Positions 16,811 through 63,315 of a stretch of DNA of 63,421 nt are shown here, piece by piece. Made by a program: the position numbers and the translations under genes. Each line of letters begins with the position of its first letter. Positions within the stretch are counted from its first letter, which is position 1. Source of the stretch: a virus; IMG/VR virus record IMGVR_UViG_3300020187_000029; one strand, 5' to 3'. A model generated the notes under the pieces. That model was not told where the DNA came from. It was given only the letters and a program-made list of their open reading frames with translations, and ran no database searches.

Positions 16811-19800
16811 ATGGCAATAGAATTCATTCACTCGTTAGAAGTAGCAGGGGATTTAACAGTAGATGGTGTAATCTCAAAAAGTGATGGAGGTTCTTCGACA
16901 CAATGGGATGCTGCCTACGGTTGGGGTAACCATGCTGATGCAGGATATTCAACCTCAGATCACAACCATGATGCTAGATATTTAAAACTATCTGGCGGAA
17001 CTATAACCAGTGCAACAGCAGTTGGGTTAACAATAAATCACGACACTTTTAATAAAGGATTAATACTTGAAAGAAAGCATGACTCTAATGCTGCTTCTAT
17101 TAAGTTTAAAAATACTACCTCAACACAAGGAACATTGTTCGCTATAAGTAATGATAATTCTTTGTATTGGAGACATGGTGATGAAACAGATAACTACAAG
17201 TTATGGACTGCAAAAGACTTTTCCGAAACAGACGTTGCTAACGGAGTTACAGCCCATGGATGGTCTAACCATGCTGATGCAGGATACATAAAAACAATTC
17301 CAAGAACCTATGGTAATGCTACTACAATATTAGATAGAGCAATTGAATTTCATGACAACGGAGGTGATTTATCCTGGATTGTTGGTGCAGATGATAGAGG
17401 AGGAGTTGGCACACCAGGTCAAAATGCTTTTGTAATTAGAACATTAAAAGGAACAAGGTTTCCACAAGACACAACTTGGAATTCAAAAGGAACTGAGGTT
17501 TTTGGAATAGACGACAGTGGTAATGTTGGTATCAATGTTACACAAGCAGACTATCTTGAAAGAGTTAATATTGGTGGTAATATTCGTATCACAGGTGGTA
17601 TTGAGGCTGATGGTTATAAACCTACTGAATGGGATGCTGCGTATACCTTCTCTACAGGAACTCACGCACCAACAGATGCAGAAAAAAACGTACAATCAGA
17701 TTGGACTGAAGCAACTACGACAAGCGATGCTTTTATACTTAATAAACCTAGTATAATAACAACTGGTCACACAAATGCTCTTTTTACCTCACTAGACGAT
17801 GTAGATGATAATAGAGTAGACAGTCAAACAAACTATACGCAAGGACCACACGCAAACCATAGTATTGTAATGACTCTGAAAAGTGCAGCATCTTCAGGTA
17901 GACGAGCACAGTTATTTTTTGGAGACACCTCAGCAGGAGGTATGCATTTAAGACTCCATCAAGGTGGTGAGGCTTGGCATCCCTGGAAGAAAGTATGGAC
18001 ATCTAATGAGTTTTCAAGTGATGATGTCGCTAACGGAGTTACTGCACATGGTTGGGGTAATCACGCAGACGAGGATTACTTAACTGCACTACCTAGTCAC
18101 AATCATGATGGCAGGTATTTAAAATTAAACCCAAGACTTAAAGCAAATGCAGATACAATAACTCAGTCAGGAATTCATATTTGGGATGTTAGCGAGGCTA
18201 CAGATGATCCTGAAGGTGCATCAGATGGTTTACTAACTACTAAGTTTTGGGATTCTTCAGGTTGGGCAGTACAGTCTTACCATGACTTTCACCATAATAA
18301 ACTTTACATAAGAAGTAAACAAAGCAGTAATTGGCAAGATAAGTGGGCACAAGTTCATACAACAGATAGTTTTACAATTAGTGATGTTGAACAAGGTCAA
18401 ACAGCATACAGTTGGGGTAACCATGCCGATGCAGGTTATGTCAAAACAGACACCGACACCGTTTTTAATGGTGGAAATGTAGACAATCCAGTTGTTATAG
18501 ATAACACCTCTGCTAATTGTGTTTTACACTGGTCAGATAGTGGTGATTCTACAGGTGCAATAAAAATTAAATTACCAGGATTTCATAGTAAATCGAACTG
18601 GTCTATGCTTGTAATGAGGGTGACCTTATATGAGTACACATCAGATGCACATACAATTTATACTGTATCAGGACATGACTGGACAAGTGGATGGTATAAT
18701 AAAAGAATTAAAAAGCATGGAGAGAGTGCTAAGGAATTAAAGTATGCGTTCTCATCCTCAGCAGATGAAGATTATTTAATTTTAGGAGAGGTAGGTGATA
18801 AATTTAAATATGGTCATGTTACGGTAGATGTAATTGCTCACCCAGGGTTTTACCATGGTGCAATGAATTTAACATCTGGATGGGAAATAAGCCAGGTAAC
18901 AAGTCTTGAAGGTGTTACAGAACAAGAATCAACTAATGAAAAAGTAATAGATACAGCAAACCCATCTGTTGCTAATTGGGATACAGCCTACGGTTGGGGT
19001 AATCATGCTGACGGTGGATATCTTACATCTCTACCTACTCATGGTCATGAAACTATTCAAGCAGAATCAACATATTCTATAGACGTAAAAGATCATGGAG
19101 GTCATACTTGGTTTAGAAATGCTACAAATATGTGGACTTTCCAAGGTGGATCTAGTGGTGATGATTGGACACAAACATTTACTCATTACTTACCAAGTAG
19201 AACTACTGCCAATGCTCAAATGATGCAGATTGGACAAAGAGATTCTAATGCTGTTGATGGTAGTTATAAAGGTGTTAGAATTGTAAAATACGCTGCAAGT
19301 AAAGTTGTTGACGGTCATTTACAAGTTGGAACTATTTCTATAACAGATGGATCATCAGACAATTGGAATACTGCCTACGGATGGGGTAACCATGCAGATG
19401 GTGGATATCTAACGTCATATTCAGAGACATCAGATCTAGAAAGTGTTCGTGCAAGAGACAATAGCATTGCAGGTGTAATTAACTTTACTCCTGATACTGG
19501 AGATATATTACAGGTAGATGGTCAAGTAATACTTAAAAGAACTACAGCAAACGGAGGAATAACTATTGGTCATGATGATGCTGTAATTATAGCAGGTGGT
19601 GATACGTCAAGCACATTAAATGCCAATATTAATAATGCAGAAGAGACTGTATTTATTGGTGCTGAAGGTGGTCTAAAAGTATTTGCATTTCCAGATAATA
19701 TGTCTGGAGGATGGGGTGCTAGAAAAGAATGGAGATTCCAAAATGATGGTGATACAGACTTTCCTGGAAAATTATACCCAAGTGGCGGAAGTACGCACTA

Positions 19801-39674: not shown

Positions 39675-42600
39675 ATGGAAGACGAAGATATCTTAGGAGT
39701 TGATCCTTTTGTAGATTTAAGTACAGAGGAAAAAGAAGATAAATTAATTATTCTTGCGGATAAATTGAGAAAGTCCAGGAATACAGGTATGTCTGGTTTT
39801 GAAATACAAGATATACAAAGTGTTATACCTGACCTTAATCAAAATCAATTTCAAGAGGCTGTAGCCTGGGGTAACACTTTTAATAGAGGTCGTTACGAAC
39901 AAGGTGATGAGTTGAATTCTAAATTTGAAGGTTTATTTCCTGAGTTAGAGGGTGTTCAGTTTCCTGAATATGAAAACAACAACGGTTCTATAAATGTATT
40001 AAATGCCCAAACAAATCCTGATAACGCTCAGGGTAAGTGGGGTAAAATACAAGGTGCTATAGACAAAGGGACTCAGATGTACGATAACCAGGAAGTTGAT
40101 GGTGTTATTGCACAGCCTGGATTGTTGCCAGAAGGAACTGATGAAAGTATAAAAAAGAATTTGATACAATACGGACAGGTGTTAAGACATACTGATCCTG
40201 AGTTTAATAAAAAATACCAACCAGGAGAAGACCCTTTTGAAGATCCTAGGTCTGCATATGAATTTACAAAGCAAGCAAGAAATTTTCAAGGAACTAAATT
40301 TAAAGTTAATGCATTAAGATATATTGCTTCTAACTACGATAAGAATCTATATGATTTTGTAGATAAAAATGAAGACTTTTTTAAGATAATGCCTGAACTG
40401 CGTGAAGATGAAGAGTTCATGAAGATGTATAAATCCCATGAGGATGTAGCATCTAAATATCATGATCATATAAAAGCCAATTTTGGAGATATGTATTCTC
40501 AGGATGCAAGGGATATGCTGCAAACTGCTAGATTAAGTGGGGCTATGGGTCCAGGTGTTGGTGGAATTATGCCTGGTTATCTTGATACTTCTGTTGCAGT
40601 AGGTGTGGGAGCAGTTGTTGAAACTTTAGGAAACTTAGGAGGTGGTCTGTATGAGTTTTTTGCAAAGCATGGCGATAAACTAAATCCAGGGTTATTATTA
40701 GCAGACGCTATAGGAAGTTCACTTGCTTCAGATGAAACAAATGAAAAGTTAGCCGAACTAGATGAAGTATATGACAGACAAGCGGAAGTAACAGCAGATA
40801 AAATCTCCCATTTTTTCTCATCAGATAATTGGAAAGACACATCTTTAGGTCAATATGCATATGTACCTAATGAGGTAGCAGGGGCAGACTTGGCTGACAA
40901 TCCTATGTATATATTACCAATGACATTAAAGACTGTAGGTGAAATGGCTCCTGCGATTGTTGCTGCGGCTTACACAGGTGGAGGTACATTAGTAGCAGGT
41001 TCTATAATGGGGGGTGACCAATTCTTTAAATCTTATCATCAAACAAATAAAGAAGCAAGAGAACTTGGAGTAGATCCAGAAGACGCTGAAGCAATGGCAT
41101 TAAGTATAGCCCTTGTTACTGGTGGTACTAGTGCTTTATTTAATAACCCTTTAGCAAGAAAAGGTGTTGGTGCTATGATGGGTGTAAGACAAAGAGCCAC
41201 AAAAGAAGCGGTTAAAACCTTAGCATCTTCAGGAAGTAGACAAGCAGCAATAAAAGCAGGAGGAAAAGCATATTTAAAAGAAGTTGGAGGTGAGGAGTTA
41301 GAAGAACTTGTACAAGGAGGCTTTGAAAATTATACTAAATACAAGTACGATCAAAACTCTCCAAACCCAGTATATGGTGTAGATAAGTTTATGTCTAAAG
41401 AAGAGTTTACAAATACGGTAATTCTTACTGCAACAGCAACGACTTTAATGGCATCACCAAACCTAGGAATATCTTCATCTCAACTAGAGAAGGAAGCATG
41501 GACAACAGCAGGTTTAGATTATGCCAATTTTGAGAAATCTGTACAAAAAGAATTAAGCAAAAAGAACCCTAAGTTCACTGAGGAAACTGGCCAAGGTATG
41601 TTGGAGAAGGCTAAAGTATATGAAACTATAGTTAAGCCATTAAAAGACTCAGGGGTTAAAATAAATGAGATCACCGAATTGGCTGATGTTGTTTATAATT
41701 CAATGAATGCACCTACACAGCCTGATGCAGAAACATCTGCGGAACCAACTGTAGAGGAAAAGAAAGCAGAAATTAAAAATGGTATACCTAAACAAGGTGC
41801 TATTGTTGACGGAGGCAAAGTTGTTTCTGTAATAGAAAACATAGGAGATAGTGCCACAGATTCTGATTTAAAAACTAAACTAGATAACATCCAGGGTAGA
41901 ACTTTTAAAATGAAAAGGACTTCTCTTGAAACATTATACGAAACAAACAAAGAGTTTAAAAAGTTTGTAGATGAAAATCCTGACATGGTTTATGATGGCA
42001 AGAACAAAAATGCTCCTGCTGTTATTGATAATGAAGGAAATGTTTTAGATGGAATGAAGCGATTGGCTGCTGCATACAACAGAGGCCAAAAAGGAATTAG
42101 AGTTTTTAACGAACAAGAAACCACTGTTTCTAAAGAAGAAGAAACATCTATTGTAAACGCTATAGATAATATTGTATCTCCAACATCGGAGAATAGTACT
42201 AATGAATCTATGCAAGACATAGAAAAAATTGGTAACCATTTTCAAAGAGTGTTCAAAGGATCAACAATAGAATTTGATCAAGAAGTATTTAATGAAGAGG
42301 CCCAAAAAAGAGGATTAGATCCTGCAAAAAACAAAGGGTTTAGAGACAGAAATACAAATCAAATTTATATAAACCCTAAACTTGCTACGCTTGATACACC
42401 TATACATGAGTTTGCTCATATATGGGAAGACATGTTGGCTGAGGTAAATCCAGATGCTCATAAAAAAGCAATGGCTTTAATTAAGGGTACAAAGTTTCAT
42501 AAAGAAGCGGTTGCTAACGGTTATGGCGATAGAGCACTAAACGAGGCTTTAGTACAGGCTATTGGCGAAAAAAGTGCTAAAATATTTAAAGATCCTAAGA

Positions 42601-45600
42601 GACAATCACAGTTTGAAAAAGTAATTGATCAAGTTAAACAGGCAATTAAGCAAGCATTAAACTTACCTGCTGATGCAGATTTTGATATCAAAACAAGTAG
42701 TATTGATGCTGTTATAAACTCAAGTGCTGAGAAAATAATGTCTGCTACAAGTATTGATCCTAATGCAAATAAAGAATCAATTGATGTAGACGCAATTGAC
42801 GCACAGAGATATAAAAACCCTGAGCGTGAAGCAATAAAAGAATTCAATGCGTTAAAAGAAACATTAGAAAACGATCCAACACTATCACAACTTACTCCTG
42901 TGATGAAGGACGGTAAATATCAATTCACTAAAACAAAATCAGGTAAACTAAAAGTTAAAATATCTGGTCAGTCTTATGCTTTGGTTAACGGAGTTAATGA
43001 ACACTTTGAGGGGACTATTGAAGAGAAAATAGACCTGATTGGTGACAAAATTGTAGATGAATTTGAAGCAAATAAGGATGTACCTGAAGTAGTTAAAGGT
43101 TTAGGATGGTATAAAGATTTACATCTAAATATGAGAAACCTCTTTGGAGGTAGAACTAATTTCTTTGGTAGATTATTAGGTGCAACTTCAGGACAGACAG
43201 ATGTACAGCAAAATTACAAATATGCTACTCAAGCATTAGAGGCTTACTCAAAGGGTGCTTATGACAAGTACCTTGAAGAGTATAAAGAGTTTATTGACAG
43301 AGTAGAACAGTTTGAAAACGAAGAGGAATTAAATCAATTCTTTAACGAATATAAGGGAAGAGCAGTAAACGCTTTAAAAAAACAAGGAAAAACTGCTTAT
43401 AGCGAATCAAGAATTAAGCCTGATCCCAAAGACATTAACGAAACAAAAAGAAAGTTATTAAATCTATGGCCAAAGGCTAATCCTTTATATAGAACTGATA
43501 ATCCTACAAAACTATACGGTATTAATAGTCCTGCTGCTGCAAAGGTATTAGCAGGTATATGGTTGCAACAAACTCAGCAATCAAAGACAAATAACTTTTA
43601 TGAAAATGTTGTTGGTTTAACAACAAATCCTACTATTGATTTATGGGCTGCTCGTACAATAAGACGAATGGTTTATGATGGTAATGTTGATAGATACAGA
43701 ATTGCAGAGAGAGCAGAGCAAGGTGTAGATGAAAGAGTTTATGCTGCTGAAGCAGGAGGTTTTTCAGATTATCAATTAGCGGAAGAGGTTATCAAAAACG
43801 CTTCGGCAAAACTAGATATGGATCCCGATGATCTACAGGCATACTTATGGTTTGCAGAAAAGGATCTTTGGTTAAAAAAAGGATGGTCAAAAGGAACTGC
43901 CGCTAAGAAATCTGACTTTAGGGAAGAGGCTGCTAAAGATGATATCACTAGATATTATTTAGGATTAAGTACAGAAAGAGATCAGTATACAGATCCTGAG
44001 TTAGAAGCAAAAGATAACTTAGAGATAATAGAAGAGGAAAGACAGTCTATTCAAAACGACTTAAGAGAGGGTGACCTGGTATCATTAAAAGTAAACGAGA
44101 CACAGGGACAGTATTTAATATATCCTGAAAGAAGTTTTGATGCTGAGATGATTGTAAAATCGGATCAAGATATGACTCCTGTTTTGAAGAGGGCTATTGA
44201 GTCGGCAAAGAAACATGAACAAGAGTCGGTATTCTTGTCAGAGGTATTACCTATTGATGAGAGAATGGATCCTGAAACAATGGAGAGAGAATTGGCTAAA
44301 CGTCCAAACGCTCGGCCTGCTGTTGAAATGCAATTTAGAACTCCTATGAGTTTTGAAGAAGCATCTACTTTTGCTAGAGAAAATTTAGACAAAGAAGGTG
44401 TTCAATTAGGACCAGTAAAAACAGATATTTCTGGTTATACTTTTATAACTAATGAAGAAGGAAATAAGGTCTTAGGTGTTAAGTATCAGTTTGTTCCAGA
44501 GTTTGTTTTTGAAAACGAAGAGGATATTACAGATGATAATGTAAGGCAAGCAGTTAGTGACTGGAGTAATAATGCACATGAAACTAAATTAAATTTAGAA
44601 AACAACGAAAATGTTTTGTACTTTTACAACCATTATGTAGATACATTCGTTGCTCACAATAATCAATACAACGGAATCTTAAATAATATAGAAAATGGAT
44701 CAAAAGACATATTTAAAGGAACTAGCAAAACACGCACAAAGGAATACTTCCAATCAAAGGCCACAAGAGTCGAACCCCAACAAGGAAGTCCAAGTGTCGA
44801 TGCACAAAGACAACAAGATGAAGGGGATAGATCCCGCTTCTCTGGAACTGTATCGCCAAATGATGGCGGATCGATTTCAGGAGTCGAACACAGAAGAATA
44901 GATCAGGCAAAACTACCTGATCAACTTACACAGTTACTTACTACATTAAGTGGACAAGGCATGGTGCCTTCTAAACTTATACCCGCAATTAAGATATATT
45001 CTCAAAGAGTAGATGGTAAAGAACTATCTACTGAACAAGCGAGAATGCTGCTTAATAAATTCATGGGGTCTGAAGGTTTTAGACAAAGAGGATTTGAAAC
45101 AGGATCTATTGAAAATGCTAAGGACAGCGATGAAGGAAAGCAGGAAGTATATGATTGGGTAAACGAAAATCCCAACTATTACCAAACCATGGATATGAAA
45201 CAAACCATGGAACTAGTATTAGATGATATAAATTCTAGAGGTGGTTTTGAAAACGAACAAGTAATAAAAGATTTACTAGGTAGTAATACCACTGTTAAAG
45301 AATTAGCAAGAGTACAGTTAGCACGTCAAGCAGCATTACATCATTACGGATTAAAAGTCAGTAAACTTAGATCGGAGGGTGCATCAGGTGCGGAGATAGA
45401 TTCTGTAATTGATACAATGGCTAAAATAGAACGTGTTTTAGCAAAAGACGCTACAGAAGCAGGACAAGCATCTGCCGCATTAAGATCTTGGACAGCACAA
45501 ACAGCCGCTACATTAATTGACAGGACTGAACGTGCCATGGAGAAGTTTAATGAGGACATGGACAATAAGAGTAAGTTTGGTAATTTTATTCATAGGCTTT

Positions 45601-47885
45601 TTGGAGGTAAACAAAAATTAGAAAGCACAACACTATCACCAGAACAGCGTAAAAAAATTGAAGAGTTACACTCTATAATTAAAGACGCTCCTGCTAACAG
45701 TGAACTTGCTAATGTTGCTATGAGATCTATGTATAAATATATGGATTCGGTATTACCTTCTTACACATGGCAAGACACGTTTTTTGGTTTGCAATACGCA
45801 GCACTTTTATCAGGTGTTTCTACGCAAGTATTAAATGTAACATCAGGTAGTGCAAACATTGTTTTGCAACCGTTAATGGAAATGTCTAGAATAGATAAAA
45901 TATTTACAGGCGGTTACTTTGATTTCATAAGAAAGATTGGTTCTGGCACAAATAAAAAAGGTATGCAGCAAGGTTATAACATGGCTATGGATATCTGGAA
46001 AAATGGAGCCAGGGTAGATAAATACCAGAACTCTGAAAGCACACCAGATGGTGGTCAGTACAATGTTTTAGAAACTACAGAGTTTAAAGGTGGTAAAGCA
46101 AATCCTTACAACTACTATAAGTATGTGGGTAGAATGCTAAATGCTACTGATAGATTTATAAGTAAAGTTGGATATGAAGGTAGATATTATAATTATCTGA
46201 TAGATCAATTAAGAAAAGATGGTGTTCCTAAAAGTCAATTAAGAAAGAGAGCATCAGACTTATACTTAGCAACTGAAGTTAGTAGAACCGCACAAAAGGA
46301 AATGGAAACCTTAATGAACAGAATGCGTGAGGCTGATCCTGATACTGATTTTAGTAATATAGAAGTTGTTAGAGCAAGAGAATTAATGCACGAAGCACTT
46401 GCTTTAAAATATAGTGAGGACTTTGTTGACAAATCAGATGCTGAACTTGAAGTAATGAAGGAAAAAGATGGTTTCGATGGAACCATTGAAGAGTTTAAAG
46501 AATACATGAAGGCCATGAAAGAGGCTGAAATAAACGGTATTGCTACAGACGCTAACCTGGCAAGTAATGCACAGGTGTTTATAGACAATAGACCAGGAAG
46601 TTTTGCTCAACCTATTGCTTGGGTCGCTGAGAAAATTCGACAAGCATCCAATTCACAAAGTATAGGATTTGGTGGAAAACTTGCCATGAAATCATTTGTA
46701 CCTTTTACAAGTATTATTGGTTCAATTGGTGAATATATGATCGATGTTACACCTGGTATAGGTTTAGCAAGAGCATATATGGCTAAGGATGGTTTAGGTG
46801 AAAAAGGATCTAGAATGAGAGATGAACAAATGTCTAGAGCATACTTTGGTACAATGTCGTTTTTAGGTTTAGCAGCACTTGCGGCTAAGGCATATGAAGA
46901 TGATGATGAAGAACCGTTTTTTGAAGTAAGTGGTGGAGGTTACAACAACTCTAACATGTACACTAGAAACGATATGAAGAATGCTGCACTACCTCCATAT
47001 TCTTTTAAAGTTGGTGGTGTAGTTATGGATTATAGAAACATAGTTCCTTTAGCAATTCCAATGGCTATTATAGGTAATTATATGGAAACTCACAAGATGA
47101 CAGGAGGAAAAGGTGAGGTGTTTGATGACATGCAAGATAGATTGCTTATTGCTTATGCAAACTCTGCTAACTTAATTATGGATTCATCTGTACTTACATC
47201 TGTAAAAGAATTAACTGAGGCTATATTTGGTCAAGTAGATGGTAGAGGGTCTCAGTTTGATCCTAATACAGTTAGTGATTCTAGTTTAAATAAAACATTA
47301 CAGCGAATAGGTAAAACATCTATAAAATCTATTGGAGGAACTGTTTTAAGACCACTACCGCAAAACCTAAATTTATTTAGACAAACGACTAAAATTCTTG
47401 ACGCAAACTCATACAGTGCGGGAGATGCTAAAAATGCATTGTTATATGCAGCAGGACTTAGTCAAATTGCAGGTCAACCAAAGGTAGATGTGTTTGGTGA
47501 ACAGGCTAAAAGTTATCCAGGTGAAACAGTAATCCCTTATACTCATTGGTTTGGCTTAAGAGGTGAAGATGCTAGATGGCAGTTTTTAGATAAGTATAAT
47601 GCTTATCCTGGTAAAATTCAAAACAGACCTATGAAAATAGGAAGAGACATGAGAACTCTTACAGATGATGAACTTTACCAACATCAAATAACTACTGGTC
47701 AAGAGTTTAATAAACTCATTACTAATTATATGAGAGGAAGAGGTAGACGTGAAGATAAAATACTTACTTACTCAGGTAGATCTCAAAGCATGCACAAGAT
47801 GAACATTTCTAAAATGTGGGCTGCTGCTCAGGCTAAATCTAAACTGAGAAATAAAAAATCCTGGAGGAACACAATAATAGATTAA
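39675..47885 (+). CDS. Giant polyvalent-type virion/ejection protein (2736 aa) with ParB-like and zincin (HExxH) motifs
   Basis: PAVIDNEGNVLDGMKRLAAAY (nt 42042-42077) resembles the ParB/Srx DGxxRxxAA box. HEFAH lies at nt 42405-42419. Several Gly/Ala-rich hydrophobic segments. Lies directly upstream of the lysis genes. Confidence 0.55.
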   Translation: MEDEDILGVDPFVDLSTEEKEDKLIILADKLRKSRNTGMSGFEIQDIQSVIPDLNQNQFQEAVAWGNTFNRGRYEQGDELNSKFEGLFPELEGVQFPEYENNNGSINVLNAQTNPDNAQGKWGKIQGAIDKGTQMYDNQEVDGVIAQPGLLPEGTDESIKKNLIQYGQVLRHTDPEFNKKYQPGEDPFEDPRSAYEFTKQARNFQGTKFKVNALRYIASNYDKNLYDFVDKNEDFFKIMPELREDEEFMKMYKSHEDVASKYHDHIKANFGDMYSQDARDMLQTARLSGAMGPGVGGIMPGYLDTSVAVGVGAVVETLGNLGGGLYEFFAKHGDKLNPGLLLADAIGSSLASDETNEKLAELDEVYDRQAEVTADKISHFFSSDNWKDTSLGQYAYVPNEVAGADLADNPMYILPMTLKTVGEMAPAIVAAAYTGGGTLVAGSIMGGDQFFKSYHQTNKEARELGVDPEDAEAMALSIALVTGGTSALFNNPLARKGVGAMMGVRQRATKEAVKTLASSGSRQAAIKAGGKAYLKEVGGEELEELVQGGFENYTKYKYDQNSPNPVYGVDKFMSKEEFTNTVILTATATTLMASPNLGISSSQLEKEAWTTAGLDYANFEKSVQKELSKKNPKFTEETGQGMLEKAKVYETIVKPLKDSGVKINEITELADVVYNSMNAPTQPDAETSAEPTVEEKKAEIKNGIPKQGAIVDGGKVVSVIENIGDSATDSDLKTKLDNIQGRTFKMKRTSLETLYETNKEFKKFVDENPDMVYDGKNKNAPAVIDNEGNVLDGMKRLAAAYNRGQKGIRVFNEQETTVSKEEETSIVNAIDNIVSPTSENSTNESMQDIEKIGNHFQRVFKGSTIEFDQEVFNEEAQKRGLDPAKNKGFRDRNTNQIYINPKLATLDTPIHEFAHIWEDMLAEVNPDAHKKAMALIKGTKFHKEAVANGYGDRALNEALVQAIGEKSAKIFKDPKRQSQFEKVIDQVKQAIKQALNLPADADFDIKTSSIDAVINSSAEKIMSATSIDPNANKESIDVDAIDAQRYKNPEREAIKEFNALKETLENDPTLSQLTPVMKDGKYQFTKTKSGKLKVKISGQSYALVNGVNEHFEGTIEEKIDLIGDKIVDEFEANKDVPEVVKGLGWYKDLHLNMRNLFGGRTNFFGRLLGATSGQTDVQQNYKYATQALEAYSKGAYDKYLEEYKEFIDRVEQFENEEELNQFFNEYKGRAVNALKKQGKTAYSESRIKPDPKDINETKRKLLNLWPKANPLYRTDNPTKLYGINSPAAAKVLAGIWLQQTQQSKTNNFYENVVGLTTNPTIDLWAARTIRRMVYDGNVDRYRIAERAEQGVDERVYAAEAGGFSDYQLAEEVIKNASAKLDMDPDDLQAYLWFAEKDLWLKKGWSKGTAAKKSDFREEAAKDDITRYYLGLSTERDQYTDPELEAKDNLEIIEEERQSIQNDLREGDLVSLKVNETQGQYLIYPERSFDAEMIVKSDQDMTPVLKRAIESAKKHEQESVFLSEVLPIDERMDPETMERELAKRPNARPAVEMQFRTPMSFEEASTFARENLDKEGVQLGPVKTDISGYTFITNEEGNKVLGVKYQFVPEFVFENEEDITDDNVRQAVSDWSNNAHETKLNLENNENVLYFYNHYVDTFVAHNNQYNGILNNIENGSKDIFKGTSKTRTKEYFQSKATRVEPQQGSPSVDAQRQQDEGDRSRFSGTVSPNDGGSISGVEHRRIDQAKLPDQLTQLLTTLSGQGMVPSKLIPAIKIYSQRVDGKELSTEQARMLLNKFMGSEGFRQRGFETGSIENAKDSDEGKQEVYDWVNENPNYYQTMDMKQTMELVLDDINSRGGFENEQVIKDLLGSNTTVKELARVQLARQAALHHYGLKVSKLRSEGASGAEIDSVIDTMAKIERVLAKDATEAGQASAALRSWTAQTAATLIDRTERAMEKFNEDMDNKSKFGNFIHRLFGGKQKLESTTLSPEQRKKIEELHSIIKDAPANSELANVAMRSMYKYMDSVLPSYTWQDTFFGLQYAALLSGVSTQVLNVTSGSANIVLQPLMEMSRIDKIFTGGYFDFIRKIGSGTNKKGMQQGYNMAMDIWKNGARVDKYQNSESTPDGGQYNVLETTEFKGGKANPYNYYKYVGRMLNATDRFISKVGYEGRYYNYLIDQLRKDGVPKSQLRKRASDLYLATEVSRTAQKEMETLMNRMREADPDTDFSNIEVVRARELMHEALALKYSEDFVDKSDAELEVMKEKDGFDGTIEEFKEYMKAMKEAEINGIATDANLASNAQVFIDNRPGSFAQPIAWVAEKIRQASNSQSIGFGGKLAMKSFVPFTSIIGSIGEYMIDVTPGIGLARAYMAKDGLGEKGSRMRDEQMSRAYFGTMSFLGLAALAAKAYEDDDEEPFFEVSGGGYNNSNMYTRNDMKNAALPPYSFKVGGVVMDYRNIVPLAIPMAIIGNYMETHKMTGGKGEVFDDMQDRLLIAYANSANLIMDSSVLTSVKELTEAIFGQVDGRGSQFDPNTVSDSSLNKTLQRIGKTSIKSIGGTVLRPLPQNLNLFRQTTKILDANSYSAGDAKNALLYAAGLSQIAGQPKVDVFGEQAKSYPGETVIPYTHWFGLRGEDARWQFLDKYNAYPGKIQNRPMKIGRDMRTLTDDELYQHQITTGQEFNKLITNYMRGRGRREDKILTYSGRSQSMHKMNISKMWAAAQAKSKLRNKKSWRNTIID

Positions 47886-52544: not shown

Positions 52545-54225
52545 ATTGATCTTCGTTATGCTCTGTATAGCATGTTGTTGTTAAATTATATTTGAACTCT
52601 TGCATTCCTGTCTTACCTGTAAATCTCCATCTGACTTTCCATATGTGAACCTCAACGAGTTCTTTTTCAAAATCTCTATAAACGGTAATACCATTGTCTA
52701 CTTTATTAAAGAAGTGGGAAGAGCCACTTACGCTGTAACCTGAAGCGACCTCAACCTTCCCATTTTCTTTTTTTAGTTTTTGTGGGTGAGCCACTAACAC
52801 TACACCACAATCATATGACTCTTTAAATATTTTAATTTTTGACAATTGCATTCCTGTGTATTGGTGCTCGTTCATTCCTCGTTCTATCTTATGTTCTACG
52901 AATGCCCAATTATCAATTATCAAACAATTAATTCCTAACTTCTTAACTAACTCTTTCCCTTTGTTTAATATTCCATCTACTGTAAGATCATTGTCTTTAA
53001 GATTTATAAAAAAGAAATGATTGTTTATGAAATCAATAGCGGGATCTAGTTCTTCAGGCTGAAGATTATCTACAGATCCTTTACCAAATCTTTTACCCGC
53101 ATACTTTTCAATAAGTTCAGCAACATGAACTTTAATTGGCTGCTTTTCAGCAGAAAATATTCCAAACTTCCATCCCTTCTTAGCGAGTTCTATAGCAACC
53201 TGATCAACAAAACTTGATTTACCATGCCCAGGAACTCCTGTAACAAGAGTAAATTCGCTTGGCCTCCAGGACATTAATTCATCAAACTTTGGATATCCTA
53301 TAGTATCACCTTTAGGCATACCATAGTTATATAAGTTGTGAATTTCTGATCGAGAATCTGATGCTTTACTTACACCTTCTAGTGGAAAGGGTTTTGCTTC
53401 ATCAATACATTTAACTAATACTTCTGATCCATGATTAAGTAAAACATCATTGGCATCCTTACATCCCTCGGGAAAATTTACTAACCATACTCTTTCTTTC
53501 CCTAACCTTCTCGATAATTCATCTCTTAATTTAATTCCTGGTGCATCATTATCTAAAGCCAGGTATATTTTCTCCTTATTTTCAAACTCATCAATACTAT
53601 TATCTAAGTAAGTTAGGTTTTGATTACCTGTAGATGCTCCGTTTGGAACAGAACAAGCAAACATAAGTTTACCTTGCTGTAGACCCGCCTCATAAAATGC
53701 CATTGCATCAAACTCTCCTTCCGTTATAACACACCATGAAGCGGGTTTAATAAGATCTAAACCATACATGATCATCTCAGACCCTTTGTTGAGTTTAAAG
53801 TTCTTCTGTGAGTCTCTAAATTTTACATTAATTCTTCGGCCTTTTCTTATGTAGTTAAATTGTATTACAGGTCTTTCAGCGGAAACCTGTGGCATCCACT
53901 CTACACCTTCAGTAACTCCAAAATATTCTATTGTGCTATTGTTTATACCTCTGTCTTTGAAAAACTTTAAAACTTTATCGCTTAGTGAAGATGATTTTAC
54001 AACAGGCAATTCATATTCTGACTCGTACTCTGCAACAGATCCATTTTCTCCACAGTGATGGCAGTAATAAGTACCTGTCTCTACCCAAACTCTTAGGCAT
54101 TTTTCATTCTTATTCTTTTTCCTTGTGTGAGAACACTTAGGACATTTAGTCTTCTGTGGCTCAGAGTTACTATTTCCATTGACTTCAATGCCAAGATCTT
54201 GCAGTTTAGATAAATTATCACTCAT
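52501..54225 (-). CDS. Bifunctional DNA primase-helicase (T7 gp4-like)
   Basis: Zinc ribbon CPKC..CHHC, TOPRIM ITEGEFDAMAF / LDNDAPG, and P-loop GVPGHGKSSF. Confidence 0.8.
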   Translation of the reverse strand: MSDNLSKLQDLGIEVNGNSNSEPQKTKCPKCSHTRKKNKNEKCLRVWVETGTYYCHHCGENGSVAEYESEYELPVVKSSSLSDKVLKFFKDRGINNSTIEYFGVTEGVEWMPQVSAERPVIQFNYIRKGRRINVKFRDSQKNFKLNKGSEMIMYGLDLIKPASWCVITEGEFDAMAFYEAGLQQGKLMFACSVPNGASTGNQNLTYLDNSIDEFENKEKIYLALDNDAPGIKLRDELSRRLGKERVWLVNFPEGCKDANDVLLNHGSEVLVKCIDEAKPFPLEGVSKASDSRSEIHNLYNYGMPKGDTIGYPKFDELMSWRPSEFTLVTGVPGHGKSSFVDQVAIELAKKGWKFGIFSAEKQPIKVHVAELIEKYAGKRFGKGSVDNLQPEELDPAIDFINNHFFFINLKDNDLTVDGILNKGKELVKKLGINCLIIDNWAFVEHKIERGMNEHQYTGMQLSKIKIFKESYDCGVVLVAHPQKLKKENGKVEVASGYSVSGSSHFFNKVDNGITVYRDFEKELVEVHIWKVRWRFTGKTGMQEFKYNLTTTCYTEHNEDQYETSNGQFPKFKGQ

Positions 54226-60729: not shown

Positions 60730-61040
60730 TATTCCTCTTCTTTTAAAACTGTTAATAAATCCTTAAACACATCTATAAATCTGCATTCAAGTTCGTTTTC
60801 TGAAAACTCTATACGGTTTCCTGTATGTTGTAAATCAATACAGCCTATGTCTGTAGAAAAATCTTCAAATCCATTTTCAGTAAATATCCTTTGGATCTCC
60901 ATCATGGCTAGTTTAACTTTTAACTTTGCTTCAACTACTATGTCATCAGGGTTTAAATTAGTTTTCTTAAGTTCTTGTTTGAAGTAGGTATTTACTTCTC
61001 CCATTGTGTAATCTTCGGTATCAGTTATTAAGTATTTCAT
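60729..61040 (-). CDS. Hypothetical protein (103 aa)
   Basis: ORF. Confidence 0.55.
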   Translation of the reverse strand: MKYLITDTEDYTMGEVNTYFKQELKKTNLNPDDIVVEAKLKVKLAMMEIQRIFTENGFEDFSTDIGCIDLQHTGNRIEFSENELECRFIDVFKDLLTVLKEEE

Positions 61041-61477
61041 TATGAGTTGGTGTTTAAAATTGCGTAAATATTATCTATACATTCGCCATCACTTGGTGGC
61101 TCTTCGTTTGAGTCGGCCTCGTATTCTACCAGGTCCATGATCGCCTCAATTACTCTCATCATTCCAAAGCCTTCTGCTTTTTCTGTAGAGTTTCCGCTGT
61201 CTAATAATTCCTGGGCTTGTTCCTTTAGGCTGTAACGATTTGGGGTGACCTCCTCTTTGTCTTCAACCCAAGGACATGCTTTATTGTATAGAGAGAGAGC
61301 AAGTGTCTCATCGCCTATAGCAGTCATAAGAATATTTAATTCACCTCTTTGTGCTCTACCTCTTCTATAAACTCCAGGATCTTCTGATCTCTCGAAGTGC
61401 CAATCGTGAGAGGTTAACGCTTTTTGTAATTTAATGATCGCATTTAATTTTAATTGAACAGTTTGCATGATTTTCAT
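61040..61477 (-). CDS. Hypothetical protein (145 aa from the ATG at 61477)
   Basis: The track start at 61492 is a TTG lying inside hammerhead stem I. The first ATG (MKIMQTV...) lies 16 nt downstream of the predicted ribozyme cut. Confidence 0.55.
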   Translation of the reverse strand: MKIMQTVQLKLNAIIKLQKALTSHDWHFERSEDPGVYRRGRAQRGELNILMTAIGDETLALSLYNKACPWVEDKEEVTPNRYSLKEQAQELLDSGNSTEKAEGFGMMRVIEAIMDLVEYEADSNEEPPSDGECIDNIYAILNTNS

Positions 61478-61488
61478 TTTTAAGTTAT

Positions 61489-61540
61489 ACAAAGACGCTT
61501 CGCAGCGTTTCGCCTGGATCTCACAGGCTCATCAGTTTGT
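61489..61540 (-). ncRNA. Type-I hammerhead self-cleaving ribozyme (HH-A)
   Basis: Minus strand: ACAAA|CUGAUGA|GCCUG-UGAGAUC-CAGGC|GAA|ACGCU-GCGA-AGCGU|C^|UUUGU. All invariant core positions are present. Predicted cut after C at 61494. Confidence 0.85.
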
Positions 61541-61702
61541 TTATCCCAGGAAACCAAAAGTTGCGTTAGGATCTATACCTTCTGTTACCAGGTGAAAGAT
61601 TAGCATTGTGAATGATACAGCCCATACAGTAAATAAAGATCCTATAAAGGTTTTTGTTGCGATTGTTTGAATTTTGTTTAACATGGTTTTTCAGTTTAAA
61701 TT

Positions 61703-61855
61703 ATTAATTGATTATTTGTTGTAGTTCATTAAGTTGATAAGATCGGATTGCTCTCCTACTAAGTTCATTGCTGTTAACAATGCTAGTCCTAGAAAAGTAA
61801 TTGCTAATGCGACTACTGTTGCGACTAGTACTAATTTTAATTTTGATTTTGACAT
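61703..61855 (-). CDS. Small protein (50 aa) with an N-terminal hydrophobic segment
   Basis: Hand-translated codon by codon: MSKSKLKLVLVATVVALANYFSRTSIVNSNELSRRAIRSYQLNELQQIIN. Its ATG lies 27 nt after the HH-B cut. It replaces the plus-strand ORF 61734-61934. Confidence 0.45.
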
Positions 61856-61876: not shown

Positions 61877-61926
61877 GACAATGACGCTTCGCAGCGTTTC
61901 GATCATAAAGATCTCATCAGATTGCC
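61877..61926 (-). ncRNA. Type-I hammerhead self-cleaving ribozyme (HH-B)
   Basis: Minus strand: GGCAAU|CUGAUGA|GAUC-UUUAU-GAUC|GAA|ACGCU-GCGA-AGCGU|C^|AUUGUC. Predicted cut after C at 61883. Stem I overlaps the UAG stop of 61926-62171 by 1 nt. Confidence 0.85.
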
Positions 61927-62171: not shown

Positions 62172-62181
62172 AGTTTTCAGT

Positions 62182-62517
62182 TTAAATTGTTTGTGTGTAT
62201 AATTCGTTTGTTACTTCTTCGCCTATTATATAAACAATCATGTTTACAGTAGTTTCCGCATTGTCGTAAGTTCTTACAGCATCATCACCAAAATTTTCTC
62301 TCTCGTAGTTCTGTACAAATGCGATTGCTTCAAAAGGATCAATGTTGTGTTTTTTTAACCATTGGCTACAGTTGTAATAACCGATTAAATAATAATCATT
62401 GTTGAATGCTTCCTGGTGTAGGTCGTTATCATCGCTATTCCATTTAACATCGTTGTTATCAGCGATAAAATCATTTAAATACTCTTTTAGTTCAGTTTTG
62501 ATTGTTTCAGTATACAT
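62182..62517 (-). CDS. Hypothetical acidic protein (111 aa)
   Basis: ORF preceded by the conserved leader. Its ATG lies 25 nt after the HH-C cut. Confidence 0.55.
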   Translation of the reverse strand: MYTETIKTELKEYLNDFIADNNDVKWNSDDNDLHQEAFNNDYYLIGYYNCSQWLKKHNIDPFEAIAFVQNYERENFGDDAVRTYDNAETTVNMIVYIIGEEVTNELYTQTI

Positions 62518-62538
62518 TGTTTTCAGTTTAAATTATTA

Positions 62539-62590
62539 ATCAGACATCCCGAAGGATGTTTCGCCTGGATCTCACAGGCTCATCAGTGAT
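62539..62590 (-). ncRNA. Type-I hammerhead self-cleaving ribozyme (HH-C)
   Basis: Minus strand: AUCA|CUGAUGA|GCCUG-UGAGAUC-CAGGC|GAA|ACAUCC-UUCG-GGAUGU|C^|UGAU. Predicted cut after C at 62543. Confidence 0.8.
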
Positions 62591-62591
62591 C

Positions 62592-62867: not shown

Positions 62868-62967
62868 TTTATTTTCAGTTTTAATTAATTAGTTATTAGT
62901 AGTTGTTACTTCTCATGAAGGTTGCAAATAATGCGATTGGAATTGCTAGTGCTATTAAGATCATGGC

Positions 62968-63213: not shown

Positions 63214-63282
63214 AATTTCAGTTTAAATAATTGATATTCAGTTAATTAGCGTTTCGAGTGTCATGCTCGCTGAACGATGGTA

Positions 63283-63315
63283 CAAATATAACGCATTATT
63301 TTATTAACATCCAAA
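63283..63315 (-). promoter_or_regulatory. Candidate early promoter, Bacteroidota sigma-A type (TTTG-N21-TATATTTG)
   Basis: On the minus strand the -33 TTTG is at 63315-63312 and the -7 TATATTTG at 63290-63283, about 70 nt upstream of the first early ATG. Confidence 0.5.

Follow-up and report, generated by a model that had tools for sequence, protein, structure and literature searches.

A type I hammerhead ribozyme, one of three in a phage small-gene operon, lies between an upstream stop codon and the downstream translation-initiation region

Genomic context

The DNA analysed here, referred to as the window, is a 63,421-nt viral stretch (IMG/VR record IMGVR_UViG_3300020187_000029) that looks like a whole phage genome of ~63 kb. 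Its genes include a terminase, a portal, a primase/helicase and a 2736-aa ORF, and the terminase shares 31–33% identity with its counterparts in Flavobacterium (Elemovirus) and Cellulophaga phages. We regard it as a virulent-looking podovirus akin to these Flavobacterium and Cellulophaga phages, with a host probably in the Flavobacteriia. The 2736-aa ORF (39675-47885, plus strand) closes the structural block, and in size it recalls the giant virion proteins known from podoviruses of the N4-like and crAss-like groups. A tRNA-Arg(UCU) gene lies at 145-221 on the minus strand.

A leftward operon of small genes carries three hammerhead motifs, the last of which, HH-A, is the subject of this report. 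The features of the operon used below are the following (scores are from a covariance model described in the next section).

63283..63315, minus strand: Bacteroidota-type promoter-like site, TTTG-N21-TATATTTG, in the ~200-nt non-coding operon head
62538..62591, minus strand: HH1, the first hammerhead, with C17 at 62543 (descriptor scan; 77.0 bits)
61877..61926, minus strand: HH2, the second hammerhead, with C17 at 61883 (descriptor scan; 62.3 bits)
61541..61684, minus strand: upstream cistron, a 47-aa hydrophobic peptide with its TAA at 61543-61541, the last two A's of which are the conserved unpaired AA
61489..61540, minus strand: HH-A, a complete type I hammerhead (sequence, descriptor scan, covariance model at 80.2 bits, covariation)
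61040..61477, minus strand: downstream CDS, whose product has 145 aa if read from ATG 61477 and 142 aa if read from ATG 61468 (PHROG 10258)
61689-61700, 62175-62186, 62521-62532, 62873-62884 and 63216-63227, minus strand: copies of the 12-mer TTTAAACTGAAA

In the window the order is HH1, genes for 111 and 81 aa, HH2, two genes for 47 aa each, and HH-A. Among relatives, HH1 invariably comes after a 91-aa gene and HH-A before the 145-aa gene, and the genes between them vary: L004 is without the 111-aa gene, and L013 has genes for 111, 85 and 105 aa and no HH2. Because gene order is conserved around the ribozymes and variable between them, they sit at cassette borders. The sole cargo between the HH2 and HH-A cuts is a tandem pair of 47-aa hydrophobic, membrane-like peptides (61541-61684 and 61712-61855, minus strand), which is conserved in L004-type relatives and has unrelated genes in its place in L013-type relatives.

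The promoter-like site at 63283..63315 is a candidate start for a polycistronic transcript containing all three ribozymes, and the next minus-strand TAnnTTTG is found at 53665, ~9.6 kb further on. This reading is suggestive only, since the genome as a whole shows no enrichment of the motif. A separate observation concerns the 12-mer TTTAAACTGAAA (up to one mismatch allowed): each of its five operon copies lies a few nucleotides upstream of an ATG, and the whole window holds 10 matches compared with 2.0 expected, a number reached in 0 of 100 shuffles. It is present at junctions with and without a hammerhead, and also after hammerheads in related contigs, and has the look of a motif that the early genes share for translation initiation or RNA binding. 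Searching GenBank phages by blastn with the operon and with the 61-nt element returned no match.

Structure of HH-A and the array of three

Read directly, the minus-strand RNA is UAA-ACAAA-CUGAUGA-GCCUG(UGAGAUC)CAGGC-GAA-ACGCU(GCGA)AGCGU-C-UUUGU, in which the parts of HH-A are placed as follows.

61540-61536 (5' strand) and 61493-61489 (3' strand), minus strand: stem I, 5 bp
61535-61529, minus strand: core CUGAUGA
61528-61512, minus strand: stem II, GCCUG/CAGGC, 5 bp, with loop UGAGAUC
61511-61509, minus strand: G12 A13 A14 (GAA)
61508-61495, minus strand: stem III hairpin, ACGCU/AGCGU, 5 bp, with loop GCGA
61494, minus strand: C17
61493..61494, minus strand: scissile bond predicted from the hammerhead consensus, 3' of C17 (61494) and 5' of U1.1 (61493)

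The core matches the consensus throughout (C3 U4 G5 A6 N7 G8 A9, G12 A13 A14 and H17 = C61494), and both closing pairs are present, G10.1-C11.1 and A15.1-U16.1 (A61508-U61495). The topology is type I: both termini of the RNA lie in the open stem I, and a loop closes each of stems II and III. The motif lies on the strand of all flanking genes. After hammerhead cleavage the upstream RNA would end in a 2',3'-cyclic phosphate and the downstream RNA would begin with a 5'-OH. The original prediction of a complete type I hammerhead with these stems and this cut site agrees with conservation, covariation and synteny, and direct reading returns each of its coordinates, including the TAA at 61543-61541, the TTG at 61492 and the first ATG at 61477. 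A 42-aa plus-strand ORF (61467-61595) runs antisense across HH-A and is, by analogy with gp68 of a cultured Flavobacterium phage (see below), most likely a spurious call produced by the conserved RNA element.

The window was scanned with a deliberately loose descriptor (CUGANGA, stem II of at least 3 bp, GAA, an A...U stem III of at least 3 bp, H17 and stem I of at least 4 bp). Exactly three sites were found, all on the minus strand and within 1.1 kb, compared with a mean of 0.023 sites per window in 300 dinucleotide shuffles, of which 7 had any match. A covariance model built from relatives was also run on the window with filters off, and the best score outside the three sites was 15.2 bits. 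Since the three sites far outscore everything else, HH-A is one of exactly three. It had been described as a single element; the element is real, and it belongs to a three-ribozyme array. The window thus has three coding-strand hammerheads within 1.1 kb between small phage ORFs, the type of clustering reported by Perreault 2011.

The three copies are related in parts. In HH1 the upstream stop TAA abuts stem I, and the 29 nt that make up core, stem II and loop II match HH-A without a difference. HH2 has a 4-bp stem II (GAUC/GAUC) and an upstream TAG that overlaps stem I by 1 nt, and it has 18 identical nt in common with HH-A, which form stem III and its loop. Judged by these identities, HH-A looks chimeric. 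The segments between predicted cuts measure 660 nt (HH1-HH2) and 389 nt (HH2-HH-A). In several relatives (L004 2407-2492, L025 4093-4176, L030 7512-7593 and similar) a fourth hammerhead with a conserved long stem III insertion of ~48 nt lies ~1.1 kb downstream of the HH-A orthologue; neither the descriptor scan nor the covariance model finds this long-stem III hammerhead of L004/L025-type relatives in the window.

Conservation and covariation

A search of IMG/VR with the exact core and stem II returned 16 loci, and 82 when the loop was left free. Full-length homologues of the downstream protein (65–99% identity) are encoded on 16 related viral contigs, and every one of these contigs has the ribozyme directly upstream. 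In the closest relatives the array recurs at the same gene junctions, with 2–4 ribozymes per locus. HH-A orthologues vary only at N7 (U to C), in the stem III loop (GCGA, GAGA, UGCG or UACG) and in the length of stem III, where the lengthening is one base pair and is paired. In the core of wider relatives, too, N7 alone varies (U, C, A or G).

To avoid circularity, 65 unique sites were chosen on core and stem II only. Stem III, H17 and stem I are complete in 64 of them, despite 34 different stem I and 29 different inner stem III sequences, and H17 among 64 family members is C in 59 and A in 5. In an alignment of 34 sequences (A1), pairing holds in 97.7% of cells, and 94 cells are changed on both sides; none of 500 shuffles reaches the observed value, and sliding the partners lowers pairing to 16–36%. 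Both-side changes affect five of five pairs in stem I and three of five in stem II, and the third pair of stem III covaries. The G10.1-C11.1 pair is invariant (34/34 sequences), and RNAalifold, unaided, predicts the same three-way junction.

Curated models and folding energy contribute little to this picture. At gathering thresholds Rfam reports the tRNA alone in the window and no hammerhead, and in E-value mode it gives only sub-threshold matches to Hammerhead_3 or RAGATH-1. For HH-A the best curated model is Hammerhead_3 (RF00008), at 17.1 bits compared with a gathering score of 48.5. The scores against the hammerhead clan and RAGATH-1 (RF03152), 17.1 and 21.9 versus 48.5 bits and 22.8 versus 56.3 bits, stay below the gathering thresholds of the families RF00008, RF00163 and RF03152, which is a limit of models made for other topologies or subfamilies and no evidence against membership of the class. 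Folding z-scores are unremarkable (-1.3 for the 52-mer and -0.6 in context), and in the minimum-energy fold of a 101-nt context an upstream CCUGGG pairs with the 3' strand of stem II and no hammerhead is formed. The case consequently rests on comparative evidence, given that curated models miss HH-A and folding energy is uninformative. As a side observation, upstream coding sequence CCUGGGAU (61545-61553, minus strand) can pair with the stem II 3' strand (61512-61518), as it does in the minimum-energy fold. We considered the CCUGGG pairing as a regulatory switch and rejected it because it is not conserved in the flanks of orthologues; it is probably incidental.

Ends of stem I and loop II

Positions 1-5 of stem I pair in 71–77 of 77 unique members, which sets the stem at 5 bp. 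An extension through an internal loop (UA/UA, then GGG with CUU) had been proposed. Position 6 is a conserved A.A or A.G juxtaposition (61/77), positions 7-12 pair no more than independent columns across the 77 members, and the GGG/CUU pairing is absent in HH-A orthologues. The extension, which shows no covariation, is therefore unsupported and we do not retain it.

What is conserved next to stem I is single-stranded. The base at -1 is A in 80 of 82 members and that at -2 in 61 of 82, positions -3 to -1 read TAA in 42 of 82, and position +1 is A in 66 of 82. The upstream frame's UAA (61543-61541) directly abuts stem I, as originally noted, and this is a trait of the family: wherever the upstream ORF ends exactly at stem I, the stop is UAA (34/34). 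The AA is still present where no stop codon abuts (28/29 and 23/29), so the unpaired AA belongs to the ribozyme family, and upstream genes make use of it to complete their stop codon.

Fast hammerhead cleavage at physiological Mg2+ needs stem I and stem II to be joined by a tertiary contact, which can be a loop-loop or loop-bulge contact or a pseudoknot. Loop II is conserved as U-G-A-R-A-Y-U with an invariant G2, and together with the unpaired AA it is a candidate for such a contact; the unpaired A's on both sides of stem I (-1 and +1) are the candidate partners. We set aside a Watson-Crick pseudoknot joining loop II to the tails: the family alignment gave no Watson-Crick covariation between them, and the few mutual-information signals, read from pair counts with no control, look like the Legionella subfamily.

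Downstream gene and leader

The downstream CDS has no Pfam match. For the flanking proteins, Pfam and PHROGs gave no function, and a large protein search returned only unnamed homologues. Homologues of the downstream protein were found on contigs of 62.6–63.7 kb, Tara Oceans data included.

An automatic start call places the beginning of this gene at the TTG at 61492-61490, inside stem I and one nucleotide from the predicted new 5' end. The original prediction had considered this call very likely wrong, and relatives agree: 5 of 8 distinct orthologue types read TTG TAT AAC TAA in that frame, and an in-frame TAA at this place means that the TTG is not the start. The first ATG (61477) begins 16 nt after the predicted cut and a second in-frame ATG (61468) 25 nt after it. 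ATG 61477 is restricted to the window and the L001 and L049 lineage, and all orthologues start at the equivalent of ATG 61468 (M-Q-T), 25–27 nt from the cut. The 16-nt leader proposed at the outset is thus correct as a distance to ATG 61477, and the conserved start is ATG 61468; the leader is 16 or 25 nt long, and only the 25-nt form is conserved. The collection entry for the identical protein has 145 aa, as from ATG 61477, and most orthologue entries have 141–143 aa.

The same placement is seen across the family. Of 84 unique members, 36 have an upstream ORF that ends at offset 0 relative to stem I and 14 have one that ends at +1; from the cut to the first ATG that opens at least 30 codons, the median distance is 28 nt. 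From these stop and start offsets, the ribozyme fills the intercistronic spacer just before the translation-initiation region. The leaders are without a Shine-Dalgarno sequence.

Proposed role and alternatives

HH-A is very probably a functional, self-cleaving type I hammerhead that sits between two cistrons and processes the transcript of the leftward small-gene operon. The motif, its non-random occurrence, covariation, synteny and stop-to-start placement are properties of the locus and its relatives; that cleavage takes place, and that the phage benefits from it, we infer from these sequences.

As the polycistronic RNA emerges, stems II and III would fold locally, the 5-bp stem I would then close the three-way junction, and the RNA would cut itself after C61494. 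The upstream fragment would consist of the two 47-aa peptide genes followed by the whole ribozyme (two G+C-rich hairpins) and end in a 3' 2',3'-cyclic phosphate. The downstream fragment would start as 5'-OH-UUUGUAUAACUUAAAA, an A/U-rich leader that is short and has no Shine-Dalgarno sequence. With a stem I of only 5 bp, mostly A-U, the products should come apart easily. Together, the three ribozymes would divide the operon transcript into single-gene or few-gene mRNAs that could differ in stability or translation without any host RNase, and the possible benefits are differential stability, a freed initiation region and independence from host RNases.

A stronger version would make stop codon, hammerhead, leader and start codon one module, in which the ~25-nt A-rich 5'-OH leader made by cleavage is required for efficient downstream initiation or for stability and the upstream UAA takes its last two letters from the ribozyme's unpaired AA. 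In Bacteroidota, the hosts to which this would apply, no Shine-Dalgarno pairing is used. We consider the module fairly unlikely; if true, it would parallel, in bacteria, the translation initiation that depends on ribozymes and has recently been reported for RNA viruses of fungi and plants.

The three sequences might instead serve mainly as boundaries for homologous recombination and cassette swapping between phages, with cleavage secondary or incidental, a situation that can be likened to the mobile promoter/stem-loop cassettes of T4-type phages. The fixed neighbours of HH1 and HH-A around differing genes (window, L004 and L013) would fit this, as would the chimeric look of HH-A (29 nt of HH1 and 18 nt of HH2), and genes flanked by hammerheads were not constant in earlier work either (Perreault 2011, PMC3088659). 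However, a pure DNA recombination signal has no need for compensatory changes, an invariant core or the H17 rule, and a role in recombination could exist alongside cleavage without taking its place. As the main function we find recombination unlikely.

Excision followed by circularisation is very unlikely. Here pairs of ribozymes would release the 389-nt or 660-nt RNA, which would be closed by RtcB or by the reverse hammerhead reaction into a translatable or regulatory circle, as in retrozymes and viroid-like elements. RtcB joins 5'-OH and 2',3'-cyclic phosphate ends, the kind left by hammerhead cleavage, and the segments flanked by these type I hammerheads are short. The 5' end left by HH2, AUUGUC, could pair with four of the five bases of the HH-A stem I strand ACAAA, and tandem ribozyme pairs in RNA viruses enclose 186–399 nt (bioRxiv 10.1101/2024.05.16.594327). 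On the other hand, the flanking ribozymes differ in sequence and are not copies of one unit, L013-type relatives have no HH2, and spliced or circular array products were sought by Perreault 2011 (PMC3088659) and none were found.

A non-catalytic element (an intrinsic terminator or attenuator, a 3'-end stabiliser or a chance resemblance) is hardly credible: a consensus scan does flag the stem III hairpin and CUUUGUAUAA as terminator-like, but only three U's follow the HH-A hairpin, its sisters have CUGAUU and CAUUGUC with no U tract, a terminator would neither conserve CUGAUGA, GAA and H17 nor need covariation in stem I, and chance is excluded by three sites against 0.023 expected.

Processing of the operon transcript by self-cleavage, the reading we prefer, bears on a question that dates from 2011, namely what phage hammerheads do. 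The locus offers a clean case, with three conserved ribozymes in one operon, an exact placement from stop codon to start region and a family of more than 80 distinct relatives. It also carries a practical lesson for annotation, given that such ribozymes escape Rfam thresholds, are over-annotated as small ORFs on the wrong strand and mislead ORF start calls, as at TTG 61492.

Comparison with known systems

Hammerheads of this kind are already described and widespread. The same type of stem II (GCCUG-N7-CAGGC) is found in ~25 Legionella genomes, Patescibacteria, Prevotella, Clostridiales and archaeal MAGs. The Legionella subtype (L105-L137, ~25 genomes) has a 7-bp stem I followed by a conserved AAGCCA..., and one Patescibacteria MAG contig (JAHCSE010000023.1, L126) carries three clustered copies. 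Among cultured phages, Flavobacterium phage vB_FspP_elemoA_7-9A (L101) has a hammerhead of the HH2 subtype (NC_055852.1, 17349-17288, minus strand, 45.8 bits). GenBank places a 36-aa hypothetical protein, gp68 (17275-17382), on the opposite strand across it, which is probably spurious. On the ribozyme strand of this phage we noticed an unannotated 21-aa ORF whose TAG overlaps stem I by 1 nt. Together with Flavobacterium sp. BAL314 the phage is a ready experimental system. The first 50 kb of MW202828.1, the best GenBank terminase relative, has no hammerhead of the HH-A family.

Within Rfam, HH-A has the same core and three-way junction as the families of clan CL00010 (Hammerhead_1 RF00163, Hammerhead_3 RF00008 and others) and RAGATH-1 (RF03152). 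The type III model is a circular permutation of the HH-A RNA, and loop II (UGAGAU) lines up with the loop conserved in the Hammerhead_3 model. Like HH-A, RAGATH-1 places a 5-bp stem I after an A/U-rich linker, but its extra upstream hairpin is absent in HH-A.

In its proposed effect, the array resembles the processing of the T7 early polycistronic mRNA, in which intercistronic cuts by RNase III yield separate mRNAs and upstream products that end in a protective hairpin. Here the RNA itself would be the nuclease and no host enzyme would be needed. The ends would differ as well, with a predicted 5'-OH and 2',3'-cyclic phosphate in place of the 5'-phosphate and 3'-OH left by RNase III.

The closest precedent is the work of Perreault 2011 (PMC3088659), which reported clustered hammerheads in prophages and phages, with triple arrays in Agrobacterium tumefaciens, Clostridium scindens and Azorhizobium caulinodans, as well as Legionella hammerheads upstream of ardA. 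Cleavage was demonstrated in vitro for three prophage arrays and in vivo, in E. coli, for one triple array, and long phage transcripts were proposed to be cut into gene-length mRNAs (PMC3088659); according to a 2019 review (PMC6765202), a benefit from processing is unproven for any phage hammerhead. As in those arrays, several coding-strand hammerheads lie within 1–2 kb between variable small phage genes, and the same transcript-cutting role is proposed. In contrast to them, the host clade is that of a ~63-kb podovirus near Flavobacterium and Cellulophaga phages, each of the three ribozymes is type I, the spacer from stop codon to translation-initiation region is wholly taken up by the ribozyme, and none of the copies in the window reaches an Rfam gathering score. 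Given that clustered phage hammerheads have been known since Perreault 2011, the locus is an added case of a published arrangement, in a phage lineage that carries no annotation of them.

Lopez-Galiano et al. (bioRxiv 10.1101/2024.05.16.594327) describe RNA viruses of fungi and plants in which type I hammerheads in the 5' UTR enable translation to start. There, as at HH-A, a type I hammerhead lies just before an ORF and its cleavage would make the 5' end of the translated RNA. Those viruses use eukaryotic cap-independent translation, whereas HH-A lies in a bacterial operon with an upstream cistron, where any link to translation would be a hypothesis.
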